Assembly: GCA_043797705.1 (NCBI GenBank)
Contig: JAZDPJ010000002.1
Location: 20,833-84,832 of the forward strand
Reading direction: 5' to 3'
Length of the DNA: 64,000 nucleotides
Source of the DNA: an archaeon
GTDB taxonomy: Archaea; Nanobdellota; Nanobdellia; SCGC-AAA011-G17; GW2011-AR17
Shown here one piece after another: positions 2,777 to 27,334 of the stretch. The notes beneath the pieces were generated by a model. It saw nothing but the letters and a program-made list of their open reading frames with translations. It ran no database searches and was not told the origin of the DNA. Within the stretch, counting starts at the first letter, position 1, and each line of letters starts with the position of its first letter. The position numbers and the translations under genes are program-made.

Positions 2777-3118
2777 ATGCAAAAAGTCAAAACCGTAAGC
2801 ATCCTTGCAAAAGAATCTCGTGAAACATGTTCTGCTTTCCCATCAAGATTAGATACAAGAACATGCCTAAAATTTACAAAACAAAACCAAAAATGCAAAA
2901 TTGATTTCAAAATAGCCTCAACAAGAGATATTGCAACAATCAAAATCAATGAATGTCTAAACATCGACAAACCTTACGAAGAATATTATAACCCCATTTT
3001 CAAAATACCTGCAACTGTAGTAGAACTAGGTCTAATTCTAAATACCAGGCCCAACAACACAGTAAAAAGATTAAATGAAGCTATGATATCCCGCCCAATG
3101 CTATACAGAACTTCCTAA
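2777..3118 (+). CDS. Hypothetical protein (weak call)
   Basis: 113-aa ORF in the gap between the tRNA and the RuBisCO gene. No recognisable motifs, and the top-strand composition bias alone favours long ORFs here. Confidence 0.2.
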   Translation: MQKVKTVSILAKESRETCSAFPSRLDTRTCLKFTKQNQKCKIDFKIASTRDIATIKINECLNIDKPYEEYYNPIFKIPATVVELGLILNTRPNNTVKRLNEAMISRPMLYRTS

Positions 3119-4386
3119 GCAGTTCCCCATTCCTTAATAGCCTTAGCCAATTCAGGATGAGTAGCAGCATACTCCCTTATAGGAACATTTCTAAGACAAG
3201 CATCCAAAGCCTGCCTAACAGCCTTAGCACCAGCTCTCGTACCATCTGGATGCGCATGAATACCGCCACCAAAATTAGCAAGAATATCCTTACCCATCCT
3301 CTTTACAAGCTCAGGAAGAACACCAGGCTGCAAACCACCTGAAGCAGTAGCAAGAACCGGCTTCAAACCATACCATTTCTGCTTTAAAACATGAGACAAC
3401 CCATCAGGCTGAACAACATCCTTTTGGATAACATTCTGTACAGCAGTAACTTCTTCCTCAGAGCCACCCATCTTACCAAGATCAACAGTACCAATATGCA
3501 AGGTATCAACACCAATCATCCTAGCAATCTTAGCCAAGAACAACATTGAAATACCGTGCTTCTCATTCCTTGTCAAAGCTCCATGCATAGCGCGATGCGC
3601 ATGAATAGGCAATGAAGAATTTCTCCTAACAGTCTGCAACGCAGACCACCCAGAAGTCAATATATCAACCATAATATAATTTCCACCCTTATCCTGAACA
3701 TATCTCAACCTCTTAATCATCTCAGAAGTCTCAGCAGTGATATTAGGCATGTAAGCCTTACGCTCACCAGTCTCAAGTTCAGCCCTGTCCTTTAATCTTA
3801 GAGTCAGATCAATACGCTCCTTAAATTTATTAAAATTCATTGAAGTAAGATTCTCATCATCCTTAACACAATCAATACCCCCCATCCAAGCCCCATAAGC
3901 AACCTGTGCATGCTGCTTAGCAGTAAGCCCCAACTTAGGCTTAACGATTGTTCCAACTAATGGCCTACTAGGAATATGAAGCAGCTTCCTTACACCTTTA
4001 ACACCAAGCCTTGGACCGTGAAATGAGGTTACTATCTTCTTGGGAAAAGTAACATCCTGCAATCTTAAATTCCTTATTGCCTTCATACCAAACACATTAC
4101 CAGCAATGCTAGAAAGAATCTGAGGTATGTTTCCAGCCTCAAACAAATCATAATGGTAAGCAATCCTCACCGCATTAGTCTTTGAGTTAATATAGAACAC
4201 ATGAGGCATTAGCTTCTGCCTTATTGTCTCATTCAAAGTATGTATGTCTGACCAAGTATCTATAGAGCTTTCGCCAGCCAAATGATTAGCTGCTTTCTGC
4301 AAAGGAATGCGATTCGGCTCCACATAATACTCACAAACAAGGTCGTTTTTCTGTGGTTCGTAGCTAAAATCAATATAATCTTTCAT
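3115..4386 (-). CDS. rbcL: Ribulose-1,5-bisphosphate carboxylase, large-subunit type III (archaeal form III RuBisCO)
   Basis: 423 aa. The carbamylated-lysine motif GGIDCVKDDENL matches GGxDxxKDDE, and the overall layout matches archaeal form III RuBisCO. Gene symbol is by family. Confidence 0.85.
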   Translation of the reverse strand: MKDYIDFSYEPQKNDLVCEYYVEPNRIPLQKAANHLAGESSIDTWSDIHTLNETIRQKLMPHVFYINSKTNAVRIAYHYDLFEAGNIPQILSSIAGNVFGMKAIRNLRLQDVTFPKKIVTSFHGPRLGVKGVRKLLHIPSRPLVGTIVKPKLGLTAKQHAQVAYGAWMGGIDCVKDDENLTSMNFNKFKERIDLTLRLKDRAELETGERKAYMPNITAETSEMIKRLRYVQDKGGNYIMVDILTSGWSALQTVRRNSSLPIHAHRAMHGALTRNEKHGISMLFLAKIARMIGVDTLHIGTVDLGKMGGSEEEVTAVQNVIQKDVVQPDGLSHVLKQKWYGLKPVLATASGGLQPGVLPELVKRMGKDILANFGGGIHAHPDGTRAGAKAVRQALDACLRNVPIREYAATHPELAKAIKEWGTA

Positions 4387-4492: not shown

Positions 4493-4864
4493 TTGGAAAC
4501 CAAAATGAACAAAATACTAACAAGCATAATACTAGGATCAACATTACTAACAGGATGTGCAAGCAACTACTTCCTAAAAAGCTATTATATAAATGTTGGT
4601 GGAACAGAAATAACCTACCAAACAGGAACAGTACCAAACACGGGCAGAGAACTATGCATGGCAACCGAAGACAAAGAAAATTCTTATCAAAAACTAATAG
4701 ACTACCAATGTGACGAAACCGTCGAAACCTACAAAACAAGAAGACAGGACAAGACATTAAAAACAGTAAACAAAAACAAAAACAATGCAAACTGGTTTGA
4801 AACAACAATAAATACTCAATTCAAAGAACTCAAAAAAAAGGTGATAAAACAGTTGGAGGACTAA
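4493..4864 (+). CDS. Small lipoprotein (signal peptide plus lipobox LLTGC)
   Basis: N-terminus MNKILTSIILGSTLLTGCASN. Codon style matches the local plus-strand genes. Confidence 0.45.
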   Translation: METKMNKILTSIILGSTLLTGCASNYFLKSYYINVGGTEITYQTGTVPNTGRELCMATEDKENSYQKLIDYQCDETVETYKTRRQDKTLKTVNKNKNNANWFETTINTQFKELKKKVIKQLED

Positions 4865-4869
4865 AAAAA

Positions 4870-5064
4870 ATGCGAAGAAACCCACTATTATTCACCCCAG
4901 AGGAATTCAGTTTCCTACACAGCACCTTCCTGAAAGAAGGCGACGAGACAAAAGTGTTCAAGAAAATAAAATCCAAAAAAGGATACGATCTTGACAAAAG
5001 AGAGATAGACCTGATAAAAAGACGATTCCAAAAATGGAAAGGCGATAATACAGGAATGTTCTGA
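4870..5064 (+). CDS. Hypothetical small basic protein
   Basis: 64-aa ORF with local codon style and no motif. Confidence 0.3.
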   Translation: MRRNPLLFTPEEFSFLHSTFLKEGDETKVFKKIKSKKGYDLDKREIDLIKRRFQKWKGDNTGMF

Positions 5065-5069
5065 TAGAT

Positions 5070-5711
5070 TTAACCCAATAACCCATGCAGTTCAGCGACT
5101 GACTTCAGAATATAATCAGGCTTCTCCTTCTTTAGTTTCGCACGCGAATGATTACCAGTCAGAACAGCAATAACCTTTAACCCCGCACCCTTACCAGCCC
5201 GAATATCATAAACAGTATCCCCCACCATGTAACCATTCTTAATCTTAGTCTTTTTCATAGCAAGCTTCAAAGCATCAGAAGCAGGCTTAGGATGCTTAAC
5301 CTCATCATTACCAATCAGAAACCTAAAAGTAGACTTCTCAATACCAGCAGCCCTCAAAGTAGCAACCATCTCCTTATGCTTAGTATTAGAAATCAAAACC
5401 AAAGCATATTTTTTCTTAAGAAGTTTTAAAGTATGCTTAGCACCGCGAATCACACGCACATACTGAACAGTATCACCAACAACAAAACGATCATGATCAA
5501 CAACAACCTTCTCCACCTGCTTATCAGACAACTCAGGAAAAATATCCCTAACCAAAACCCTACCAACAAGACCAAACAAAGAAATAATCCTCTTAGAAGA
5601 AACTTTCGGCAAACCATTCTTCCTGAAAGCCTTATGAAACGCAGCAACATGCACACGATCAGAATAAACCAAAGTATTATCCAAATCCAAACAAATCAAC
5701 TCTTTTTTCAC
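5070..5711 (-). CDS. HAD-superfamily hydrolase (phosphatase, phosphoglycolate-phosphatase-like)
   Basis: N-terminal motif I LICLDLDNTLV matches DxDxT. Size and layout fit a HAD hydrolase. Confidence 0.7.
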   Translation of the reverse strand: MKKELICLDLDNTLVYSDRVHVAAFHKAFRKNGLPKVSSKRIISLFGLVGRVLVRDIFPELSDKQVEKVVVDHDRFVVGDTVQYVRVIRGAKHTLKLLKKKYALVLISNTKHKEMVATLRAAGIEKSTFRFLIGNDEVKHPKPASDALKLAMKKTKIKNGYMVGDTVYDIRAGKGAGLKVIAVLTGNHSRAKLKKEKPDYILKSVAELHGLLG

Positions 5712-6133
5712 TTCCTCTTCCTCTTCAAACGCTTCCTCAGACCCTTCATATGACCACGCACATACCTCAGATGTTTAGCAAATTGAGACCTGAGACCCTC
5801 AGCCACAACCCAACCTATCAAAAAAATAGCAACCAAACTAAACACAACATAAACAACAGAAGCAGTCTTCCCAACGAGACCAGCCATACGCTCCTCAGAA
5901 TCCTCCTCAGAACCCATATACCCCCTCATAGCACTCTCATTATCAAACATCACATTAACATACGCAACAGAAGGAAAATTATCAATATCAAAACACAAAG
6001 AATCCGCAGAACCTCTATGCTGCGAAACATGATACAACTCATGCGAAACAAGATTGACAAACAACATACCCGGCAACAAAACTAAAACTAGCAAAACCGC
6101 AACCCCAACCGTAATCAAAGTAAGCCTCTTCAT
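5708..6133 (-). CDS. Small membrane protein with an HExxH motif (putative membrane metalloprotease-like)
   Basis: N- and C-terminal transmembrane segments with SHELYHVSQHRG between them. Overlaps the HAD gene by 4 nt (ATGA), consistent with an operon. Confidence 0.4.
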   Translation of the reverse strand: MKRLTLITVGVAVLLVLVLLPGMLFVNLVSHELYHVSQHRGSADSLCFDIDNFPSVAYVNVMFDNESAMRGYMGSEEDSEERMAGLVGKTASVVYVVFSLVAIFLIGWVVAEGLRSQFAKHLRYVRGHMKGLRKRLKRKRK

Positions 6134-6170
6134 GAAAATAAAGGAACGATACCCTCAAAGCACCGTCCCG

Positions 6171-7091
6171 TCACCTCTTATCCCCAGAATCTCCAAGGAA
6201 AAATGATTTCTTAACCTGCCTCACAAAATCAGCAGGCCACAACACACCCAACTCCGAAACAATAGCAGTAATATGCTTCTTATCAACAATATCAAAAGCA
6301 GGATTCAAAACCTTAACCTTCGCAGGAGCATTCTTCCAAACCTCATCAGGACTACGCTGCTCAATCTCCTCCGCCTTATGAACAGTATCTGGATCAAACT
6401 TCCACGAATGAGCACAAACATAAACAGGAACATTCCTAGAAGCAGCAACCCTAGCAAACATGCCACTACCAATCTTGTTAACCACAGAACCATCAGCAGT
6501 AATAGCATCAGCACCGATAAACATAGCACTGCAATTCGAAAGAGCAACAGAAGCAGCAGAATCCACAACATAAGTCACCGGAATGTTAGCTTTACTTAGT
6601 TCAATAGCAGTTCTTCTGCCTTGGAACAAAGGCCTTGTCTCAGTATTGTAAACCCCAAACTTCTTGACACCATAAGCCTTCTTGAAAATATTCATAACAG
6701 TAGAAGCATGACAATGAGTAAACACATTAGTATTATCCCGCATCAACCCAATAGCAAAACCCTCCAGCTTCTCAGAATCAACCTTGTTATCATCAGCAAT
6801 CTTCTTAGCAGTCTCTCTAACAATCCTCTTTAAATCCTGAACCTTCTCCAAGTTAGACTCACGAACACGCTCAAGAGTAAAATTAATGAAATTACGCATC
6901 ATAGGCTCAGTAGCCCTAGTTGCGAAAAGTTCAGACTTCGCAGACCCCAACTGCTTAATAAAAACCTCCTTATTAGAAACATCAATTTTAGATGAGAAAG
7001 AAGCAAAAGCCCCCAAAGCCGCAAAAGCAACATTCTCAGCCCCCTGAATCTTGAGCTCCTTAATTCTTTTGCACACCTCTTTAAACTTCAT
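6171..7091 (-). CDS. Ribose-1,5-bisphosphate isomerase (eIF-2B alpha/beta/delta family, e2b2)
   Basis: IKELKIQGAENVAFAALGAF at the N-terminus and ...FIGADAITADGSVVNKIGSGMFA... are typical of the eIF2B/R15P isomerase family. Start set at the internal Met (MKFKEV...); the ORF track begins at 7136. Confidence 0.75.
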   Translation of the reverse strand: MKFKEVCKRIKELKIQGAENVAFAALGAFASFSSKIDVSNKEVFIKQLGSAKSELFATRATEPMMRNFINFTLERVRESNLEKVQDLKRIVRETAKKIADDNKVDSEKLEGFAIGLMRDNTNVFTHCHASTVMNIFKKAYGVKKFGVYNTETRPLFQGRRTAIELSKANIPVTYVVDSAASVALSNCSAMFIGADAITADGSVVNKIGSGMFARVAASRNVPVYVCAHSWKFDPDTVHKAEEIEQRSPDEVWKNAPAKVKVLNPAFDIVDKKHITAIVSELGVLWPADFVRQVKKSFFLGDSGDKR

Positions 7092-7173
7092 GCATAAAAC
7101 TAAGGCTATAAAGTTTATAAAGATTCTTGAAAGCAAAAATAAAGCTTATAAAATACAGAATAATCAATATAGT

Positions 7174-7578
7174 ATGCAAACGATAAAACTAAAATTCACA
7201 AAAATAGAAGTCCCAGAATTTGAAAGAAAAGGGTTCCTGCCTGTAAGGTTCCATTATGAACAGAATGGAGAAGATAAAATCCTTGAAAAGCAGTATGGAT
7301 ATGTAAAAGAAGATCCAGTAGCCTTTGCTGAAGACCTAATAGCAGAAGTGAGAAACAAATGCCGCAGAAACACAAACTCAAACTACACAGATGATGGAGT
7401 GCTATCCGGATTCATAAATGTACAACTGCAAGAAGACAGAGAAGAACTGACAGCAGAAAGAATAGCAAACGCACTAAAACAATTACGGGATAGAATAAGA
7501 AATATCAAAAACATGGCACACTCAGAGAATTACATGAACAAATATGTAGAAGTAAGAGGGATAGTACTGGAGCTGTAG
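7174..7578 (+). CDS. Hypothetical protein
   Basis: ORF 7051..7578 trimmed to the first Met that does not overlap e2b2. No motif. Confidence 0.35.
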   Translation: MQTIKLKFTKIEVPEFERKGFLPVRFHYEQNGEDKILEKQYGYVKEDPVAFAEDLIAEVRNKCRRNTNSNYTDDGVLSGFINVQLQEDREELTAERIANALKQLRDRIRNIKNMAHSENYMNKYVEVRGIVLEL

Positions 7579-7579
7579 A

Positions 7580-8458
7580 TTGACAAAAAAAATAGCTTAC
7601 ATTTACGTTGCACTAACCGTATTCTTATGGAGCTCAGTTGCAGCTGTTGGAAAAATATTACTAAAAGGCCTGGATAATTTCCAAGTACTTTTTTACATGC
7701 TAATAACTGCAATAATCGGATTGTTTATCATAATCCTATTAAAGAAAAAACTTAAAGAACTACTCAAATACAAACTAAAAGACTACTGGAGCTTCACATA
7801 TATGGGATTCCTTGGAATCTTTCTGTACAGCGCACTATTCTTCGGCGCACTAATGTTCGCACCCGCACAAGAAGCATTCATTGTCAATTATACCTGGCCA
7901 ATATGGGTAGTCATCTTTGCATCAATAATCCTCAAAGAAAAATTCACAGCAAGAAAACTAACCGCGATAATACTGGGGTTCATAGGAGTCTACACAGTAG
8001 TCACAAATGGTAAAATCCTAGAATTCACAATAACAAATGTCAAAGGAAACCTATTAGCTCTTGGAGGAGCAGTATCCTACGGGCTATTCTCAGTATTAGG
8101 GAAAAAAGACAACTATGACAAGCTAAACTCCATGTTCTTCTACCACATTTCCGGACTAATATTTGCAATACCCGCTTTACTGATATTCTCAAAAATAACC
8201 ACAATAAATCTCCCACAACTAGGAGGATTAATCTGGTTAGGAACCTTCACAACAGGAATAGCATTCACATTATGGTTCCTCGCACTAAAATACGGAGACA
8301 CGGCCAAGATGTCAAACATAATCTTCCTAACACCTCTCCTATCACTAGTATGGATATATTTTCTAATCGGAGAAAAAATATTGCCCTCCTCTGTAATAGG
8401 ACTCGTACTCATCGTAACAGGGATAATAATACAATCAGGCGACAAACTCCAGAAATGA
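7580..8458 (+). CDS. EamA/DMT-family transporter (10 transmembrane segments)
   Basis: 292 aa with two repeated 5-TM halves, typical of EamA domains. Confidence 0.75.
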   Translation: MTKKIAYIYVALTVFLWSSVAAVGKILLKGLDNFQVLFYMLITAIIGLFIIILLKKKLKELLKYKLKDYWSFTYMGFLGIFLYSALFFGALMFAPAQEAFIVNYTWPIWVVIFASIILKEKFTARKLTAIILGFIGVYTVVTNGKILEFTITNVKGNLLALGGAVSYGLFSVLGKKDNYDKLNSMFFYHISGLIFAIPALLIFSKITTINLPQLGGLIWLGTFTTGIAFTLWFLALKYGDTAKMSNIIFLTPLLSLVWIYFLIGEKILPSSVIGLVLIVTGIIIQSGDKLQK

Positions 8459-21699: not shown

Positions 21700-22299
21700 T
21701 CAGCAGCTTGTGGAGAGTGTGAGGCCGTCCGGTATTTCTGCTTTACTTTTGAAGCACAGCAGGTTCTCTGGTTTTATCTTCTTCGCATATTTGCAGTCGG
21801 GCTTGTAGTAGACTTTGGAGTTTTTGCTTGCTACGTATGCGCATCCTTCTTTCGGATCTTCGCAGGACCATACTCCGAGGTTCTGGCTCTTGGCTATTGC
21901 TTCTGCTTCTTTCAGTTGGTCGTATCTTTTGGTGTCGTCCTTGTATTTGTCGTACACTTTTGCGTAGCCTTCTTTGACTATCTCCTCGTTTATCATCATG
22001 TCGTCTAGGTAGAGGTATCTGAGGTATCTTCCGTACGCTCCTTTGTCTGACTTGTCTCTTTCTGTGTATACTTCCTTGTTTAGTATGAGCTCTTTCAGTC
22101 GGTCTTTGGCTTCTTGGTAGTAGCATTCTCCTGTCTCAGGCGTGTTTATTCCGCTGAATCTTATTCTTTGTCCGTTGTCCAGGTCTAGTGTGTCTCCGTC
22201 TACTACTTTGGTTACTATGTATGGTCCTTCTTTTGTTATGTTACCTGTTGTGCATCCGCTGATTAAAACTATCAACAATAGGAATAGTAGTTTGTTCAT
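21700..22299 (-). CDS. Thermonuclease (staphylococcal-nuclease-like, SNc) lipoprotein
   Basis: Lipobox LISGCTTG, then VVDGDTLDLDNGQRIRFSGINTPE...YGRYLRYLYLD, typical of the SNase fold. Confidence 0.8.
   Translation of the reverse strand: MNKLLFLLLIVLISGCTTGNITKEGPYIVTKVVDGDTLDLDNGQRIRFSGINTPETGECYYQEAKDRLKELILNKEVYTERDKSDKGAYGRYLRYLYLDDMMINEEIVKEGYAKVYDKYKDDTKRYDQLKEAEAIAKSQNLGVWSCEDPKEGCAYVASKNSKVYYKPDCKYAKKIKPENLLCFKSKAEIPDGLTLSTSC
22131..22299. repeat. Direct repeat copy A (5' end of the nuclease gene); partner at 27075-27249
   Basis: About 60 bp are nearly identical (gtttattccgctgaatcttattctttg.ccgttgtccaggtct..tgtgtctccgtcta), followed by ~100 bp that have diverged but still align. Confidence 0.7.
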
Positions 22300-22405
22300 G
22301 TCTTTTGTTTTAGAAATTTGTTCTATATAACTTTAACTTAGTTTTTTTCGGAAGGTTTGCGGTATAGTGAACAATAATCTAAGAAAAATAGTTGGCACAT
22401 AATTC

Positions 22406-23239: not shown

Positions 23240-23371
23240 AGTTTTTAGTTTGTTTGTAATTATATAACTTTTTTGGAGTTGTAAGCGCTTTTTTATCGAA
23301 AAGTTTATAAGCGAGAACTATCGCAAAGTAGTAACAGTTTCTAGCTTTTGAAGCTAGAAGGGAGATAAAAA

Positions 23372-23563
23372 ATGAAACAAATATACCCAAAAAATTCAGA
23401 TAGAAGTTTAGAACCAGTAATTTCCAAGGAAGAACTAAAAGAAGGTCTTAGTAAAAAGGTCAGCAAACTAATAGAGAACGCTACTGAAAAAGTAGGTCTA
23501 GAGTCCAATAGCAAAAACAGACCATATGATTTGAGTTCAGCAGGACCTTATCCGGACTACTAA
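23372..23563 (+). CDS. Small peptide ORF immediately upstream of the rSAM/SPASM gene (candidate precursor peptide)
   Basis: 63 aa with no Cys, ending ...DLSSAGPYPDY. Its stop is 1 nt before the rSAM start. Confidence 0.35.
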   Translation: MKQIYPKNSDRSLEPVISKEELKEGLSKKVSKLIENATEKVGLESNSKNRPYDLSSAGPYPDY

Positions 23564-23564
23564 A

Positions 23565-24614
23565 TTGAATCCGAGAATTGTTTCTGTAATAGCAAAGGTT
23601 ACTGAGAGGTGTAATCTGAACTGCAAGTATTGCCATCTCGATAAAATTAAGTGTAAGGATATGTCAAAAGAAACCCTAAAATCCATACTTGATAATTTTT
23701 CAAGCAAAGATGGTGAATATGTACATTTCAATTGGAGTGGGGGTGAGCCATTGCTCCAAGGAGATCTTTTTTTTGAAGAGGTAAATAGGCTTGTTACTGA
23801 AAAAGGAGCGAATGTTGATTATTCTATCCAAACCAATGGTGTGCTTTTAACAGATGAGAAATTAGAGAAATTAAGAAAGCTAAACTTCAATGTCGGAGTC
23901 AGTTTTGATGGCACCGTAGGTCTGCATGTAAAACAAAGAAGGGTTCCAGAAAAGGTTGCAAAGAGAATTTATGAAACTCTTAAACAAAGGGGCAGGGATA
24001 TGAATAATATAATCTCGGTTTTAACCAGACATGGTCTTGGGATGGAAAAAGAGATATACGATAACCTCAAAGGGTTAGCAAAAAATGCCTCTGTGAATGT
24101 ATATATCCCTACAGGTAATGGCCGTAAGAATTCTTCTGAATTATTGGCTTCTCCAAAAGAAATGGGTAATATGCTTATAAAATTTTATGATTTATGGAGT
24201 CAGGATGAAAGTAATTTTATGTTAAGTCCTTTTACTCGTATTCTCCAGTCTCTAGTTAATCCTAAAGGGAACCATATATGCGAGTATTCTGCAGAGGCAT
24301 GCAATCAAGTTGTAGGGTTGGATCCTGAAGGGAATGTATATTTTTGTGCAAGGGCAACATCTGATCCTAATTTTTATATGGGTAGTTTAAAGACTCAGAG
24401 CTTGGATGAGATATTATCTAATCCCATACGTGAAAAGGTTTATGAGAGGCGTGAGGAGTTGAGAAAAGAATGTAACTGCGAATATTTTGATATTTGTAAT
24501 GGCGGTTGTCCTCAGGAGGCTGCTGTTAATGGAGATTTTTTTAGTAAGACCTACTATTGCGAGTCTAGAAAAATGCTCTTTGATTATATGGTGGGGTCTC
24601 TCAAAAATGAGTAG
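23565..24614 (+). CDS. Radical SAM enzyme with C-terminal SPASM domain (peptide/protein-modifying maturase family)
   Basis: CNLNCKYC matches CxxxCxxC at the N-terminus. The C-terminal Cys-rich SPASM-like region reads C..C...C...CNCEYFDICNGGC...YC. Confidence 0.8.
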   Translation: MNPRIVSVIAKVTERCNLNCKYCHLDKIKCKDMSKETLKSILDNFSSKDGEYVHFNWSGGEPLLQGDLFFEEVNRLVTEKGANVDYSIQTNGVLLTDEKLEKLRKLNFNVGVSFDGTVGLHVKQRRVPEKVAKRIYETLKQRGRDMNNIISVLTRHGLGMEKEIYDNLKGLAKNASVNVYIPTGNGRKNSSELLASPKEMGNMLIKFYDLWSQDESNFMLSPFTRILQSLVNPKGNHICEYSAEACNQVVGLDPEGNVYFCARATSDPNFYMGSLKTQSLDEILSNPIREKVYERREELRKECNCEYFDICNGGCPQEAAVNGDFFSKTYYCESRKMLFDYMVGSLKNE

Positions 24615-25455
24615 AATAGATGATTTAATTGATAGAGAGTCTCTTGAATTTGTTGCAGCTTCAAAAATTTCTTATAATGACTGTTATGTTTTAATGCAAT
24701 CTGGAGAACCAAGGTATTTTTTGAAAAAAACTGGGGAAGCTGAAAAGGAAGCTACTGTATACGAAGTTTTCAAGAAAGCTAAGCTTGGAGAAACTTTAAA
24801 ACTTGTTGATCACGGTACTGATTTTATCTTAACAGAATACTATCCAAACCTTACGGAATACAGCACTGTTTTTGGTACAATCTATGAAATAGCAAGATTT
24901 CATAACGCTGGAATAGAAAATGCAAATTATATAAAAGCAAAGTTGAAAGATTCAAAATTTTTAAATCTTGATAGAACAAGGGCTATTGCCAGAATCAATA
25001 AGCATCCAGAATTGGTTAGAAAATTTTATTCCAACTCAGAGTCTTTAATTAAGTGGATTGAAAAAAATCAAGACCTACCTAAAAATCAAACAAAAATCCT
25101 AGTTCACGGAGATTTTAATGAACATAACCTTGTGAGATCTTCAGATAAAGATTTTATCTTTTTAGATTTTGAATCAGCTATGTATGATTATCCTTCTTGG
25201 GATATTTGCAGACCAATGCTGAATACAGATAGTTTTGAAACTGCAGAAGATCTAGCAAAAGAATATTTAAAGGGCAGAGGCATAAAATCAAACTTAACAG
25301 AAGATTTAGTTAAAATAAAAGTTGATTGTGTACTTAAGTATGTAAGCCTCGGACTTACAGTACTACTGAGAGATACACCTCAGATAAGGGCAAGGAGAGA
25401 TTGGTACCTATCAAAAACAAGTAACTTTATTGGGAGGATAATAGATGAGATTTGA
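24607..25455 (+). CDS. Aminoglycoside/choline-kinase-like phosphotransferase (APH family)
   Basis: Brenner motif LVHGDFNEHNL plus a DFE Mg site. Start taken at the Met overlapping the rSAM stop by 8 nt. Confidence 0.65.
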   Translation: MSRIDDLIDRESLEFVAASKISYNDCYVLMQSGEPRYFLKKTGEAEKEATVYEVFKKAKLGETLKLVDHGTDFILTEYYPNLTEYSTVFGTIYEIARFHNAGIENANYIKAKLKDSKFLNLDRTRAIARINKHPELVRKFYSNSESLIKWIEKNQDLPKNQTKILVHGDFNEHNLVRSSDKDFIFLDFESAMYDYPSWDICRPMLNTDSFETAEDLAKEYLKGRGIKSNLTEDLVKIKVDCVLKYVSLGLTVLLRDTPQIRARRDWYLSKTSNFIGRIIDEI

Positions 25456-26176
25456 AATGTCTAAAATTAAGAATTTTGTATTTTTCTTGTATATCGCTAA
25501 TAAGGACCATAAGGGTTTGAAAGCATGGGAAGAAGCTAGACATATACTTGGAGATTTTTATCTAGATAATTGTAATGTTAAGGTGCTTCCTTATTTGATG
25601 ACTCTTTCAGATGAAGTTCTTGAGTCTGTTTTAGTAGATGACCCTGCTTTGAAGGAGCATTATGATCGCTCTTTTGCTAGGTTTAGTGAGTATTTTGATA
25701 AGAACGTTAGGCTTCTTGAAAAACGTAAGGGGGAACTTAAGAAAGCGTGGTCTAATTTTGATAAGAGCAAACTTGAGGTTATGTACGATTTTTATGGTTC
25801 TGAGAAGAAAGAGCCTAAAGTGGTTTACTTGTTTGCTGGAAACTTTCATGATCAAGGTCTTGGTTACCATTACCATGGACACGCTTTTTTGTTTTGTTCC
25901 AATCTTGGAAAAGAGGGTGTGACTCGGGATTTAAGGATACTTATGCACGAATTCTGCCATCTTATAGAACATAATTTAGGTGTGGAAGATAAAAATCTCA
26001 AGCAGAATATAGCTTTCTGTTTTGCGCCTTACGGGTATTTGTTTGAGGATTTGGAGAAGATACAGAATAAGGAATTATACTTGGTTGTGAAAAAAGCTAT
26101 TCAAAATAGGAAGACTTTCAAAGATATTGAATCAGAGATTGTAAAGATTTACTCTAAGAAGGATGGAACTTATTAA
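25445..26176 (+). CDS. HExxH-motif protein (putative zinc metallopeptidase)
   Basis: RILMHEFCHLIEH. Overlaps the kinase gene by 11 nt. Confidence 0.45.
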   Translation: MRFEMSKIKNFVFFLYIANKDHKGLKAWEEARHILGDFYLDNCNVKVLPYLMTLSDEVLESVLVDDPALKEHYDRSFARFSEYFDKNVRLLEKRKGELKKAWSNFDKSKLEVMYDFYGSEKKEPKVVYLFAGNFHDQGLGYHYHGHAFLFCSNLGKEGVTRDLRILMHEFCHLIEHNLGVEDKNLKQNIAFCFAPYGYLFEDLEKIQNKELYLVVKKAIQNRKTFKDIESEIVKIYSKKDGTY

Positions 26177-26248: not shown

Positions 26249-26995
26249 ATGAAAATGGAACTAAAGGTAATGACCAATAATATCTGGAGATATTATGAAT
26301 GGGAAAACCGAAAAGAGAAACTAATTAAATTTTTTAAAGAACAAGCTGCTGATGTAGTTTTCTTACAAGAAGTAGTTTTTGATGAAAGAAAGAAGTGGGA
26401 AAATCAAGTTCATGAAATTAACGAAGAATTGAATTACAAATATTTTGCTTTTGGAAAGTTAACTCAATTAACTAATTGGCATAAAGAACCTATTGATTGG
26501 ACTATGTACCTTGGTCTCGGGATACTTTCAAGGCACCCAATAAAACATTCAGGAGTTATTCTCTTACCAATACATAAAGAGCATGGCGATAAAAAGCAAC
26601 TAGGATTTCATCATGTAGTTATTGAGACTCCTGAAGGAGATGTTGATTTAATCAATGTTCACTTTTCTAATAATAACATATCCGCTAAGTTACATTTGAA
26701 AGAAACTTTGAAATGGTGTAAAGAAAAAGGGATTAAACCAATAATTGCAGGAGATTTTAACATAAAAATTGTTAAAGATTTGTTAGGTGAAGCTCAAGAA
26801 GATTATCATATTTCATACTCAATTAAGCATTACAAATCATTCTATCCAACAAAATTTTCTCATGACTCAGTACCAATAACTCTAGACTATATAATTGCAC
26901 ATAAAGGTAAGTTTGAAATGGCCGAAGTGGAATGTATAGATACTGATGTTTCAGACCATAAACCTGTAAAAGCAAATATTGAAATAAAGGAATAA
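26249..26995 (+). CDS. Endonuclease/exonuclease/phosphatase (EEP) family protein
   Basis: Conserved N-terminal Asn/Glu region (MTNNIW...FLQE), internal GDFN, and C-terminal SDHKPV motif. Confidence 0.7.
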   Translation: MKMELKVMTNNIWRYYEWENRKEKLIKFFKEQAADVVFLQEVVFDERKKWENQVHEINEELNYKYFAFGKLTQLTNWHKEPIDWTMYLGLGILSRHPIKHSGVILLPIHKEHGDKKQLGFHHVVIETPEGDVDLINVHFSNNNISAKLHLKETLKWCKEKGIKPIIAGDFNIKIVKDLLGEAQEDYHISYSIKHYKSFYPTKFSHDSVPITLDYIIAHKGKFEMAEVECIDTDVSDHKPVKANIEIKE

Positions 26996-27074: not shown

Positions 27075-27248
27075 TTAGACTATGTTGTTGTTTATTCCGC
27101 TGAATCTTATTCTTTGCCCGTTGTCCAGGTCTGCTGTGTCTCCGTCTATCACATAAGTTACGAGGTATGGCCCTTCCTTAGTGACATTACCTGTTGTGCA
27201 TCCGCTGAGGGATAGTACAAGCAATATTAGTGCTATTATTTTTTTCAT
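27075..27248 (-). pseudogene. Truncated duplicate of the thermonuclease 5' end (signal peptide plus first ~35 mature residues, then stop)
   Basis: Encodes MKKIIALILLVLSLSGCTTGNVTKEGPYLVTYVIDGDTADLDNGQRIRFSGINNNIV*. This parallels 21700-22299 up to ...RIRFSGIN, where the homology ends. Confidence 0.6.
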
Positions 27249-27334
27249 AGAAGCTGTTCTAGAATTTGTTTTTTATAAGTTGTACTTAGAAATTTTCGTA
27301 AGTTTTATAAAATACTGGTTTTTACTTTCGAGGT

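Follow-up and report, generated by a model that had tools for sequence, protein, structure and literature searches.

A probable RiPP-type peptide maturation cassette in DPANN archaea, encoding a radical SAM/SPASM enzyme and an APH-fold kinase

As a compact and directly testable four-gene system, a small peptide gene and the genes for a radical SAM (rSAM)/SPASM enzyme, an APH-fold kinase and a HExxH metalloprotein lie together in the window (the whole 64,000-nucleotide stretch of archaeal DNA analyzed here), and we consider it fairly probable that they form a cassette for RiPP-type maturation that is specific to DPANN archaea. A search for homologous peptide-rSAM pairs in other archaea, suggested along with the original prediction of such a pair, returned ~30 related loci in which a small peptide accompanies this rSAM clade, all of them in DPANN archaeal metagenome-assembled genomes (MAGs) or metagenomes. 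The cassette is real, RiPP-like and undescribed, with a chemistry that is deduced here. Given the very small genomes of DPANN archaea, and the general view that they are poor in secondary metabolism, one would not expect several of their lineages to carry a conserved and apparently mobile cassette for peptide maturation.

The precursor peptide gene (positions 23372..23563, plus strand; 63 aa) encodes a leader of ~48 aa followed by the conserved core NRPYDLSSAGPYPDY, whose codons occupy 23516-23560 (plus strand), and the peptide has GPYPDY as its C-terminal end. Its TAA stop codon (23561-23563) is followed by a single base and then, in a different reading frame, by the TTG start of the rSAM gene at 23565 (23565..24614, plus strand; 349 aa); the ORF thus ends 1 nt before the rSAM gene on the same strand, as originally described. 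The kinase gene (24607..25455, plus strand; 282 aa) and the HExxH gene (25445..26176, plus strand; 243 aa), which had been described as following in apparent translational coupling, do overlap their upstream neighbors: the ATG of the kinase gene (24607) lies 8 nt into the end of the rSAM gene, and that of the HExxH gene (25445) 11 nt into the end of the kinase gene, counted to the respective stop codons. Next to them lies a gene for an endonuclease/exonuclease/phosphatase-family (EEP) protein (26249..26995, plus strand; 248 aa; Pfam Exo_endo_phos, 2.2e-11). Upstream of the peptide gene are a candidate archaeal TATA-like box (TTTATAAG, 23304..23311, plus strand), picked out by eye ~60 nt 5' of the peptide ATG; an 8-bp perfect hairpin, TCTAGCTT-TTG-AAGCTAGA (23340..23358, plus strand), lying in what is presumably the 5' leader; and an AGGGAG Shine-Dalgarno-like element (23359-23364, plus strand) 8 nt 5' of the ATG, with GGAG-type elements also found 5' of the peptide ATG in the related loci L001 and L091. 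The TTG start of the rSAM gene is adopted because L001 and L091 have GTG and ATG starts at that position; the public gene call for the same enzyme (P0001, 317 aa) begins at Met33 and thus lacks the CxxxCxxC motif.

The cassette sits in a 4.95-kb block, of lower GC content than its flanks, between two 138-nt direct repeats (repeat family D1) that are 83% identical to each other. The left copy (22143..22280) lies at the 5' end of an SNase-lipoprotein gene, and the right copy (27089..27226) inside a truncated fragment of such a gene (27075-27248, minus strand; 57 aa). The copy in the window apparently lies within an inserted block, and the cassette is apparently mobile. The cassette has neither a transporter gene nor an immunity gene, and among the PADLOC defense-system models the rSAM enzyme matched pVip by its generic rSAM core only (residues 10-130), with zero matches for the kinase, the HExxH protein and the EEP protein.

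A peptide gene was found at nearly every locus with sufficient flanking DNA, giving 29 distinct precursors, and peptides related to the one in the window (type A, see below) were found in L091, L092-94, L111, L171 and L174. Conservation among the precursors peaks in a short C-terminal stretch, the N-terminal part being more variable. In L001, a 60%-identical relative, 13 of the 15 core residues are the same as in the window, the last 15 codons differ by six synonymous and two non-synonymous changes, and dN/dS is ~0.02 in the core and 0.38 in the leader. The small ORF exceeds what chance would give, since relatives retain it under a signature of purifying selection that peaks in the core, and we judge it from these comparisons to be a real gene under selection. 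The proposal that it is a candidate precursor has gained accordingly in substance, and the ORF very probably encodes the precursor on which the neighboring rSAM/SPASM enzyme acts.

The cassettes differ in composition among loci. Those of type A combine the rSAM enzyme with the kinase and the HExxH protein, and have the core RP[YT][DE]LSS..YxD; those of type B combine it with the kinase, a histidine phosphatase and in some cases a methyltransferase, and have the core YS[ED]xYGGE; and in type A2 the peptide gene is located 3' of the HExxH gene and not 5' of the rSAM gene. The type of peptide, the rSAM subclade (as defined by clustering) and the accessory genes vary together, and the synteny of peptide, rSAM and APH-fold kinase genes is conserved across loci apart from some kinase-less outliers. 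The hosts of the clade are Woesearchaeota, Pacearchaeota and unclassified 'archaeon' MAGs only, and the next relatives are bacterial, with at most 29% identity. The distribution of the cassette is rare and patchy. It is very unlikely, in our judgment, that the small ORF is no substrate at all, and encodes a regulator, a chaperone or an unrelated protein while the rSAM enzyme and the kinase act on some other protein or metabolite: the link between peptide and enzyme is drawn here from sequence, anSME-type enzymes can work in trans on large proteins, and the placement of the A2 peptide gene would fit, yet the near-constant presence of the peptide, the short, core-like and C-terminal location of its most conserved part, and the way in which peptide classes follow rSAM subclades all argue for a substrate.

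Both the CxxxCxxC motif and the multi-cysteine SPASM-type C-terminus that had been noted in the rSAM enzyme are present. The cluster motif is C16-x3-C20-x2-C23, preceded by ~15 residues, and eight further cysteines (C239, C246, C261, C303, C305, C311, C315 and C332) form the SPASM pattern CX9GX4C ... CxCX5CX3C ... C; Pfam matched Radical_SAM (3.6e-18) and SPASM (1.2e-5), both of which pass their cut-offs. The best NCBIfam matches were DynA (NF041298; 173.7 bits, cut-off 450) and anSME (TIGR03942; 171.4 bits, cut-off 349.45), and relatives of the enzyme scored 137-233 bits against the anSME model. The XyeB, GrrM/OscB, FxsB, YhhB and AmcB models gave 65-108 bits (cut-offs 310-450) and the MftC model (TIGR03962) 72 bits (cut-off 265), and PqqE was not among the best 25 NCBIfam matches. 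Judged by these profiles, the enzyme groups with peptide-modifying SPASM enzymes and not with cofactor or tRNA enzymes, and, while belonging to no named family, has its closest models in DynA, anSME and the cyclophane synthases. The general part of the placement first suggested, among peptide-modifying maturases, thus stands, and the two named families anSME and MftC are ones whose models score far under their cut-offs.

The enzyme matches the DynA, anSME, DarW, YhhB and GrrM models over their full length, from model position 4-5, an onset that indicates the lack of an RRE extension; its alignments to RRE-bearing models start only at about position 66-100. The PqqD-like RRE domain that the original prediction had proposed to look for was found by neither Pfam nor NCBIfam in the enzyme or in the neighboring genes. 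The best relatives in the PDB are anSMEcpe (3e-48 with the family profile), then CteB and the triceptide synthase ChlB. Cysteine ligands for both auxiliary clusters are present in the A1 and B enzymes, and those for Aux II are missing from the A2 enzymes, which suggests that the clade may not share a single mechanism. A basic residue (R263), two positions past the Aux I cysteine aligned to anSME C276, is conserved in 23/23 rSAM enzymes, in support of the maturation reading favored below. At the position aligned to anSME D277, which Goldman and colleagues are said to have proposed in 2013 as the catalytic base, 22/23 have A, S, L, M, I or G, and only the outlier L105 has D.

The cores have neither cysteine nor the sulfatase motif C/S-x-P/A-x-R, in keeping with the earlier view that sulfatase-type chemistry is unlikely. 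A partial sulfatase motif, S-x-(A/P), was considered and rejected: it fits SSAGP, SSPGP and SEAYG, and is broken by the SESYG and SDHYG cores. These observations bear on an anSME-like reaction, in which the rSAM enzyme would oxidize a Ser within the LSS (type A) or YSE (type B) of the core, yielding a formylglycine-type aldehyde and no cross-link. That the anSME score is nearly level with that of DynA, that anSMEcpe is the top solved relative over the full length and that every core has a Ser close to its conserved Tyr would speak for such a reaction; however, the score is half of the curated cut-off, the full motif is absent, the partial one fails, and the residue equivalent to D277 is not D in nearly all members, and we regard this reading as unlikely.

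Tyr-x-Asp/Glu is the only feature common to all cores (27/27 tabulated precursors, among them those of the kinase-less outliers, which carry WSD/WSE/YSD repeats, and two more); the motif was picked post hoc, with a chance expectation of 0.2-0.7 per independent group and a product of ~2e-3 over six groups. An X-Y-G motif, which would have pointed to splicease logic, was also rejected: YG is found in most type B cores, and not in the window (YPD), in A2 (YVD) or in L101 (ASGG). A C-terminal Tyr, from which the original prediction had derived a mycofactocin- or PQQ-like logic, is present in only 3/29 precursors (the window, its closest relative L001 and one of type B, L014), the others ending in ...YGDIT, ...YVDITD, ...YGGE(RA) and the like. 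The peptide could still serve as a scaffold that is sacrificed to make a Tyr-derived small molecule, as happens in such cofactor-type pathways, given the C-terminal Tyr of the window and L001 peptides, the Tyr and acidic residues of the cores and the presence of a possible peptidase. We consider this the least probable of the readings weighed here, against which stand the 26/29 precursors with other ends, the results for MftC and PqqE, the lack of a PqqD/MftB-type RRE, the absence of the E-x3-Y spacing, the rarity and patchiness of the cassette and the location of the window copy in an apparently inserted block.

In the reading that we favor, a RiPP-type maturation, the rSAM enzyme would bind the peptide directly, as anSME, DynA and the triceptide synthases do, and would abstract a side-chain hydrogen in Tyr-x-Asp/Glu (Y60-P-D62 in the window). 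The most likely outcome would be a three-residue carbon cross-link from Tyr to Asp/Glu (a cyclophane, -2 Da); since the enzyme scores equally on anSME and DynA, and far under all family cut-offs, the reaction could also be one without a cross-link.

The kinase matched Pfam APH (PF01636; 5.9e-10, 39.8 bits, cut-off 23.2), and its HGDxxxxN and DFE motifs are unvarying in type A; hhalign shows the type A kinases to be homologous to those of type B (probability 97.7%, E 1.6e-12), both having intact catalytic motifs, and PDB sequence searches with the kinase found nothing. Most cassettes are accompanied by a phosphatase whose family differs by lineage, which implies reversible phosphorylation: a histidine phosphatase (His_Phos_1) in type B cassettes and in L174, and, in L092/L093, an LMW-PTP-fold domain that the HExxH protein carries as a fusion. 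The cassette in the window has no clear phosphatase. The EEP protein, encoded within the same repeat-bracketed block, is a possible phosphoesterase partner of the kinase, and its membership of the cassette is uncertain; no EEP gene lies beside the cassette in any other locus inspected, and the protein was rejected as a conserved member, as it adjoins the cassette in the window only. The kinase would phosphorylate a hydroxyl of the core, on Ser55/Ser56 of the LSS sequence or on Tyr, and the phosphate would be removed later by the cassette phosphatase, possibly the EEP protein in the window.

Phosphorylation of the core could alternatively lead to dehydration, with the Ser phosphate eliminated to give dehydroalanine and the rSAM enzyme acting on or beside the dehydro residue. 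The APH fold of the kinase, like that of LxmK/TvaC-type kinases, and the SS pair, unvarying among type A cores, are compatible with this route, which we hold to be quite unlikely: there is no HopA1-type lyase and no core cysteine, the co-encoded enzymes are phosphatases (hydrolases of the His_Phos_1 and LMW-PTP folds) and not lyases, and the type B cores have a single Ser, within YSE.

The HExxH protein is one of 26 members of an orphan family whose fold appears zincin-like, and may act either as a leader peptidase or as an oxygenase/hydroxylase; in the RiPP-type maturation proposed here, it would cleave off the leader or hydroxylate the cross-linked Asp. No NCBIfam match at E <= 0.01 placed the window protein or its L093 homologue in IPR026337/TIGR04267, a Foldseek search of the PDB with the model gave nothing significant, and PDB sequence searches with the protein found nothing. 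Candidate rSAM-HExxH fusions among the nearest relatives, which could have tied the window to ChlB-type enzymes, were rejected: P0156, P0167, P0170, P0195 and P0284 (670-784 aa) are double-rSAM fusions according to NCBIfam, the metagenome loci L112 and L114 matched rSAM models only, over a single stretch, and the NCBIfam scan found no HExxH-domain model in any of these.

A more far-reaching reading, speculative and rather doubtful, is that of a new DPANN RiPP class, in which rSAM cross-linking is coupled to a cycle of core phosphorylation and dephosphorylation, and the orphan HExxH protein adds proteolysis or oxygenation, giving a phospho-regulated cyclophane peptide. The role of the Tyr or Ser phosphate would then be that of a protecting group, of an on/off switch or of a handle, and these episymbionts might use the product in their dealings with competitors or hosts. 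The gene set could reveal new peptide chemistry, such as an acidic-residue cyclophane or a phosphate-dependent maturation, and a product that mediates symbiont-host interaction would offer a molecular handle on DPANN biology.

Among the RiPP classes and families that could be searched, none that is described matches the gene set of the cassette, and literature searches on DPANN RiPPs, on archaeal SPASM enzymes with a phosphotransferase and on RiPP kinases and phosphatases found the system undescribed. LxmK and TvaC, of class V lanthipeptides and thioamitides, are APH-fold kinases within RiPP clusters; unlike those clusters, the cassette has no lyase and no Cys, and pairs its kinase with phosphatases and an rSAM enzyme. 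In mycofactocin the C-terminal Tyr is decarboxylated, and in PQQ a Glu-Tyr cross-link is made; the cassette resembles both pathways (MftA/MftB/MftC and PqqA/D/E) in having a small peptide with a Tyr near the C-terminus beside a SPASM rSAM enzyme, and differs from them in the unconserved C-terminal Tyr, the missing RRE partner, the weak HMM scores and the other accessory genes. With anSME (PDB 4K36-39) the enzyme shares its length, domain layout, auxiliary-cluster cysteines (A1 and B) and lack of an RRE, whereas the cassette has no sulfatase or sulfatase motif, the D277 equivalent is unconserved and the enzyme is tied to a dedicated small peptide. Also compared were the pathways that join an rSAM enzyme with an alpha-KG-dependent HExxH beta-hydroxylase (ChlBH, BpmH, PflC; IPR026337/TIGR04267). 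What defines the triceptides is the Omega1-X2-X3 motif and its aromatic-to-C-beta link (PMC11499958). The cassette differs from them in scores far under the cut-offs, in its archaeal (DPANN) hosts and in an X3 residue that would be acidic, and no counterpart of the obligatory APH-fold kinase, the phosphatases or the orphan HExxH protein was found in described triceptide pathways. Like the triceptide/3-CyFE systems (XyeB, GrrM/OscB, YhhB, ChlB) and DynA (dynobactin), it has an RRE-less rSAM/SPASM enzyme of ~350 aa adjoining a small precursor, and it is triceptide-like in that all cores contain an aromatic-x-x motif (Y-x-D/E) and that ChlB is among the closest solved structures.

The peptide ORF (63 aa; 23372-23563) begins with an ATG preceded by AGGGAG, has NRPYDLSSAGPYPDY as its C-terminus and stops at TAA; one base past this stop codon lies the TTG start of the radical SAM/SPASM enzyme (rSAM; 349 aa; 23565-24614), whose stop overlaps by 8 nt with the gene of an APH-fold kinase (24607-25455), which in turn overlaps at its stop by 11 nt with the gene of a 243-aa HExxH protein (25445-26176). 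The rSAM carries C16-x3-C20-x2-C23 and eight more cysteines in a SPASM arrangement, and Pfam finds both Radical_SAM and SPASM domains; the sequence agrees exactly with the predicted layout of a peptide ORF, a 1-nt gap, and an rSAM with CxxxCxxC and SPASM. The public gene call P0001 (23661-24614) starts at Met33, is 317 aa long and lacks the CxxxCxxC motif, and is an annotation error because the rSAM has a TTG start. A perfect 8-bp hairpin, TCTAGCTT-TTG-AAGCTAGA (23340-23358), lies directly 5' of the peptide gene's Shine-Dalgarno-like AGGGAG and might serve as an operator or as a structured element of the 5' UTR.

Relatives retrieved by searching with the window rSAM comprised one at 60% identity and a handful at 30-35%, and a small ORF adjoins the rSAM in every one of them. 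In the 60%-identical relative (L001, from a metagenome assembly at NCBI) all four genes are likewise present, and the peptide ends in DRPYDLSSPGPYPDY; over the last 15 codons the two peptide genes differ by six synonymous and two non-synonymous changes (dN/dS ~0.02), as against dN/dS ~0.38 in the leader. Together with GGAG-type ribosome-binding sites 5' of the peptide start codon (ATG) in L001, L091 and the window, this core under purifying selection indicates that the small ORF, whose conservation the original prediction depended on, is a selected, translated gene with its C-terminus as the constrained part, the pattern expected of a RiPP core. Set beside this, it is very unlikely that the peptide is not the substrate of the rSAM.

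A scan of one genome per species found only four close loci, all DPANN (two Woesearchaeota, one Pacearchaeota and one unclassified archaeon); after these, identity falls abruptly to 29% or less, in bacterial proteins resembling anSME. A metagenome scan added about 20 further loci, and look-ups of HExxH homologues two more informative ones. Labelling of ORFs by phmmer and clustering of the rSAMs lead to one coherent grouping: type A1 (window, L001, L091) has the order peptide, rSAM, kinase, HExxH; type A2 (L092-94, L111, L171, L174) has rSAM, kinase and HExxH with the peptide gene directly after; type B (about 20 loci) has peptide, rSAM, an optional methyltransferase plus histidine phosphatase, kinase and histidine phosphatase; and the outliers (L104-L107, 28-32% identity) are without kinase, with a Tyr/Trp-rich peptide still nearby. 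Homologous peptide-rSAM pairs thus do exist in other archaea, at DPANN MAG and metagenome loci of types A and B. When 1.84 billion representatives were searched with a profile, the clade topped a smooth continuum of anSME/DynA-like enzymes (2073 matches below 1e-30), the clade proper amounting to only about ten representatives.

The cores follow the pattern R-P-[Y/T]-[D/E]-L-S-[S/T]-x2-3-Y-x-D in type A and x-Y-S-[E/D]-x-[Y/S]-[G/Q/S]-[G/A]-E in type B; in A2, Thr replaces the first Tyr found in the window core (RPY), and in L101 Ser replaces the second type B Tyr. The C-terminal Tyr, originally read as reminiscent of MftA, is not conserved, being kept in just 3 of 29 peptides (window, L001 and one of type B). 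The one element common to all 29 is Tyr-x-Asp/Glu (YPD, YGD, YVD, YID or YAD in type A, YSE or YSD in type B, and among the outliers YNE, YCD, WSD, WSE and YSD). Composition-preserving shuffles gave 0.2-0.7 per independent group and a product of ~2e-3 over six groups, for a motif chosen post hoc from inspection of the data; the motif is suggestive but falls short of proof. In the kinase-less L104 (31% identity), a 77-aa peptide gene (1375-1608) directly 3' of the rSAM ends in GWSDNAHSDYGWSEHSDFYSDRY, with repeated aromatic-Ser-Asp/Glu units.

The top NCBIfam models for the rSAM are DynA (174 bits, cut-off 450) and anSME (171 bits, cut-off 349), followed by an uncharacterised methanogen peptide maturase, PapB, DarW, GrrM/OscB, DarE and YhhB; all match at full length with scores far under their cut-offs, and the relatives behave likewise. 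The kinship with MftC or PqqE implied by the original prediction finds little in this comparison (MftC 72 bits, cut-off 265; PqqE outside the best 25 models), and a cofactor pathway is the least probable of the alternatives. Alignments to RRE-bearing maturase models do not start before about model position 66-100, and only 15 residues precede the cluster motif; the rSAM therefore lacks the PqqD-like RRE domain raised in the original prediction, and the products of neighbouring genes have none either (NCBIfam/Pfam). Among solved structures, those nearest to the rSAM are anSMEcpe, CteB and the triceptide synthase ChlB. Model scores, lack of an RRE, closest structures and the weak MftC/PqqE matches together place the rSAM, as judged from sequence, as a probable peptide-modifying SPASM enzyme in the RRE-less anSME/DynA/cyclophane-synthase neighbourhood, in no named family.

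Goldman et al. reportedly proposed in 2013 that D277 is the catalytic base of anSME. At the position aligned with it, the outlier L105 alone has D, and the other 22 of the 23 enzymes have A, S, L, M, I or G; beside this, an rSAM that oxidises Ser as anSME does is unlikely. Two positions further on, all 23 enzymes have Arg or Lys, which by analogy could pair with an acidic residue of the substrate; in HtkB, Asp214 pairs with a substrate Lys (PMC11499958). Type A2 rSAMs (L092, L093, L094, L171, L174) no longer have the first three Cys of CX2CX5CX3C, and usually the last Cys is gone as well; the only one retained is the Cys that aligns with a ligand of Aux I in anSME, so these enzymes may hold just one auxiliary cluster and be twitch-like in arrangement.

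Kinases of types A and B show weak pairwise similarity, their profiles align over 189 columns (probability 97.7%), and the catalytic HGD...N/H and DF[E/G/A] motifs are kept in both. A phosphatase of a different family each time accompanies many cassettes: one or two histidine phosphatases (His_Phos_1) in type B, and in the A2 locus L174 a His_Phos_1 gene that faces the peptide gene in convergent orientation. The window's sole candidate is an endonuclease/exonuclease/phosphatase (EEP) family gene (26249-26995; Pfam), 72 nt 3' of the HExxH gene and inside the same inserted block, whose membership is uncertain because no other cassette locus has a counterpart. That the phosphatases recruited are non-homologous is an argument that the phosphate added by the kinase, which may sit on Tyr or on Ser (invariant LSS or YSE), is destined to come off later; that the kinase drives dehydration of Ser is, alongside this, quite unlikely.

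The HExxH protein, publicly annotated as a hypothetical protein (V1914_00365), has no sequence match in Pfam, NCBIfam or PDB, and a profile run against 5.8 billion proteins returned just 26 family members, all strong matches and none remote. Its AlphaFold model is confident (pLDDT 88), and the most plausible third metal ligand is E187 in most members, replaced by Gln in the window and L001. The family is not strictly tied to the cassette because one member (P0142; L172, 5138-8121) has no rSAM or kinase nearby, its neighbours including TspO and small membrane proteins. L091 encodes after its main HExxH gene a second, smaller HExxH protein (2893-3342; 149 aa, HEIVH) with weak BSP/SprT-like matches, possibly a separate peptidase.

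The genes flanking the cassette region encode L11 and Spt5/NusG-like, SecE-like, ThiF and ThiI-like proteins, which together with the low GC content indicate an archaeal genome of small size. The cassette shares a 4.95-kb block, lower in GC than its surroundings, with the gene of an aldo-keto reductase and the EEP gene. On either side of the block stands a copy of a 138-nt direct repeat (22143-22280 and 27089-27226; 83% identity), with a second matching pair (22317-22346 and 27265-27294), which suggests acquisition by insertion. The left repeat copy is the 5' end of a staphylococcal-nuclease (SNase) lipoprotein gene (21700-22299, minus strand); the right one lies in a truncated 57-aa copy (27075-27248, minus strand). 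Elsewhere, type B cassettes (L002, 96-4012; L004, 205-3453) lie directly 3' of restriction-modification genes (N6_N4_Mtase, HinfI, NmeDI), L004 also having ThsB-type (Thoeris) TIR genes, a defence-island-like neighbourhood; in PADLOC the cassette has no match other than one to the generic rSAM core. In L092 the A2 cassette is followed (4596-7603) by genes that may form a second modification module; they encode an orphan protein of 479 aa containing an FSCGATC motif, another small rSAM whose SPASM domain is partial, and PEP-utilising-enzyme domains in split form.

In the pathway that we propose, the leader would dock straight onto the rSAM, whose 5'-deoxyadenosyl radical would take a side-chain hydrogen from Asp62, and a C-C bond to the Tyr60 ring would form; the kinase would phosphorylate a core hydroxyl before or after cross-linking, a phosphatase would take the phosphate off, and the HExxH enzyme would cut the leader or hydroxylate the ring. 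HExxH proteins of rSAM-RiPP clusters can be Fe/alpha-KG beta-hydroxylases that target Asp or His in a pre-formed cyclophane, some also cleaving the backbone (PMC12636437); the constant Y-x-Asp of type A cores would suit such a role, but by sequence the window's HExxH protein falls outside that family, and it may be a peptidase or an oxygenase. The peptide family, rSAM clade, kinase/phosphatase pairing and HExxH family are undescribed in NCBIfam, Pfam and the searchable literature, and the interest of the cassette lies in its DPANN host range, phosphate cycle and orphan metalloenzyme. As a system it is a variation within the familiar rSAM/SPASM RiPP theme and does not stand for a kind of its own.
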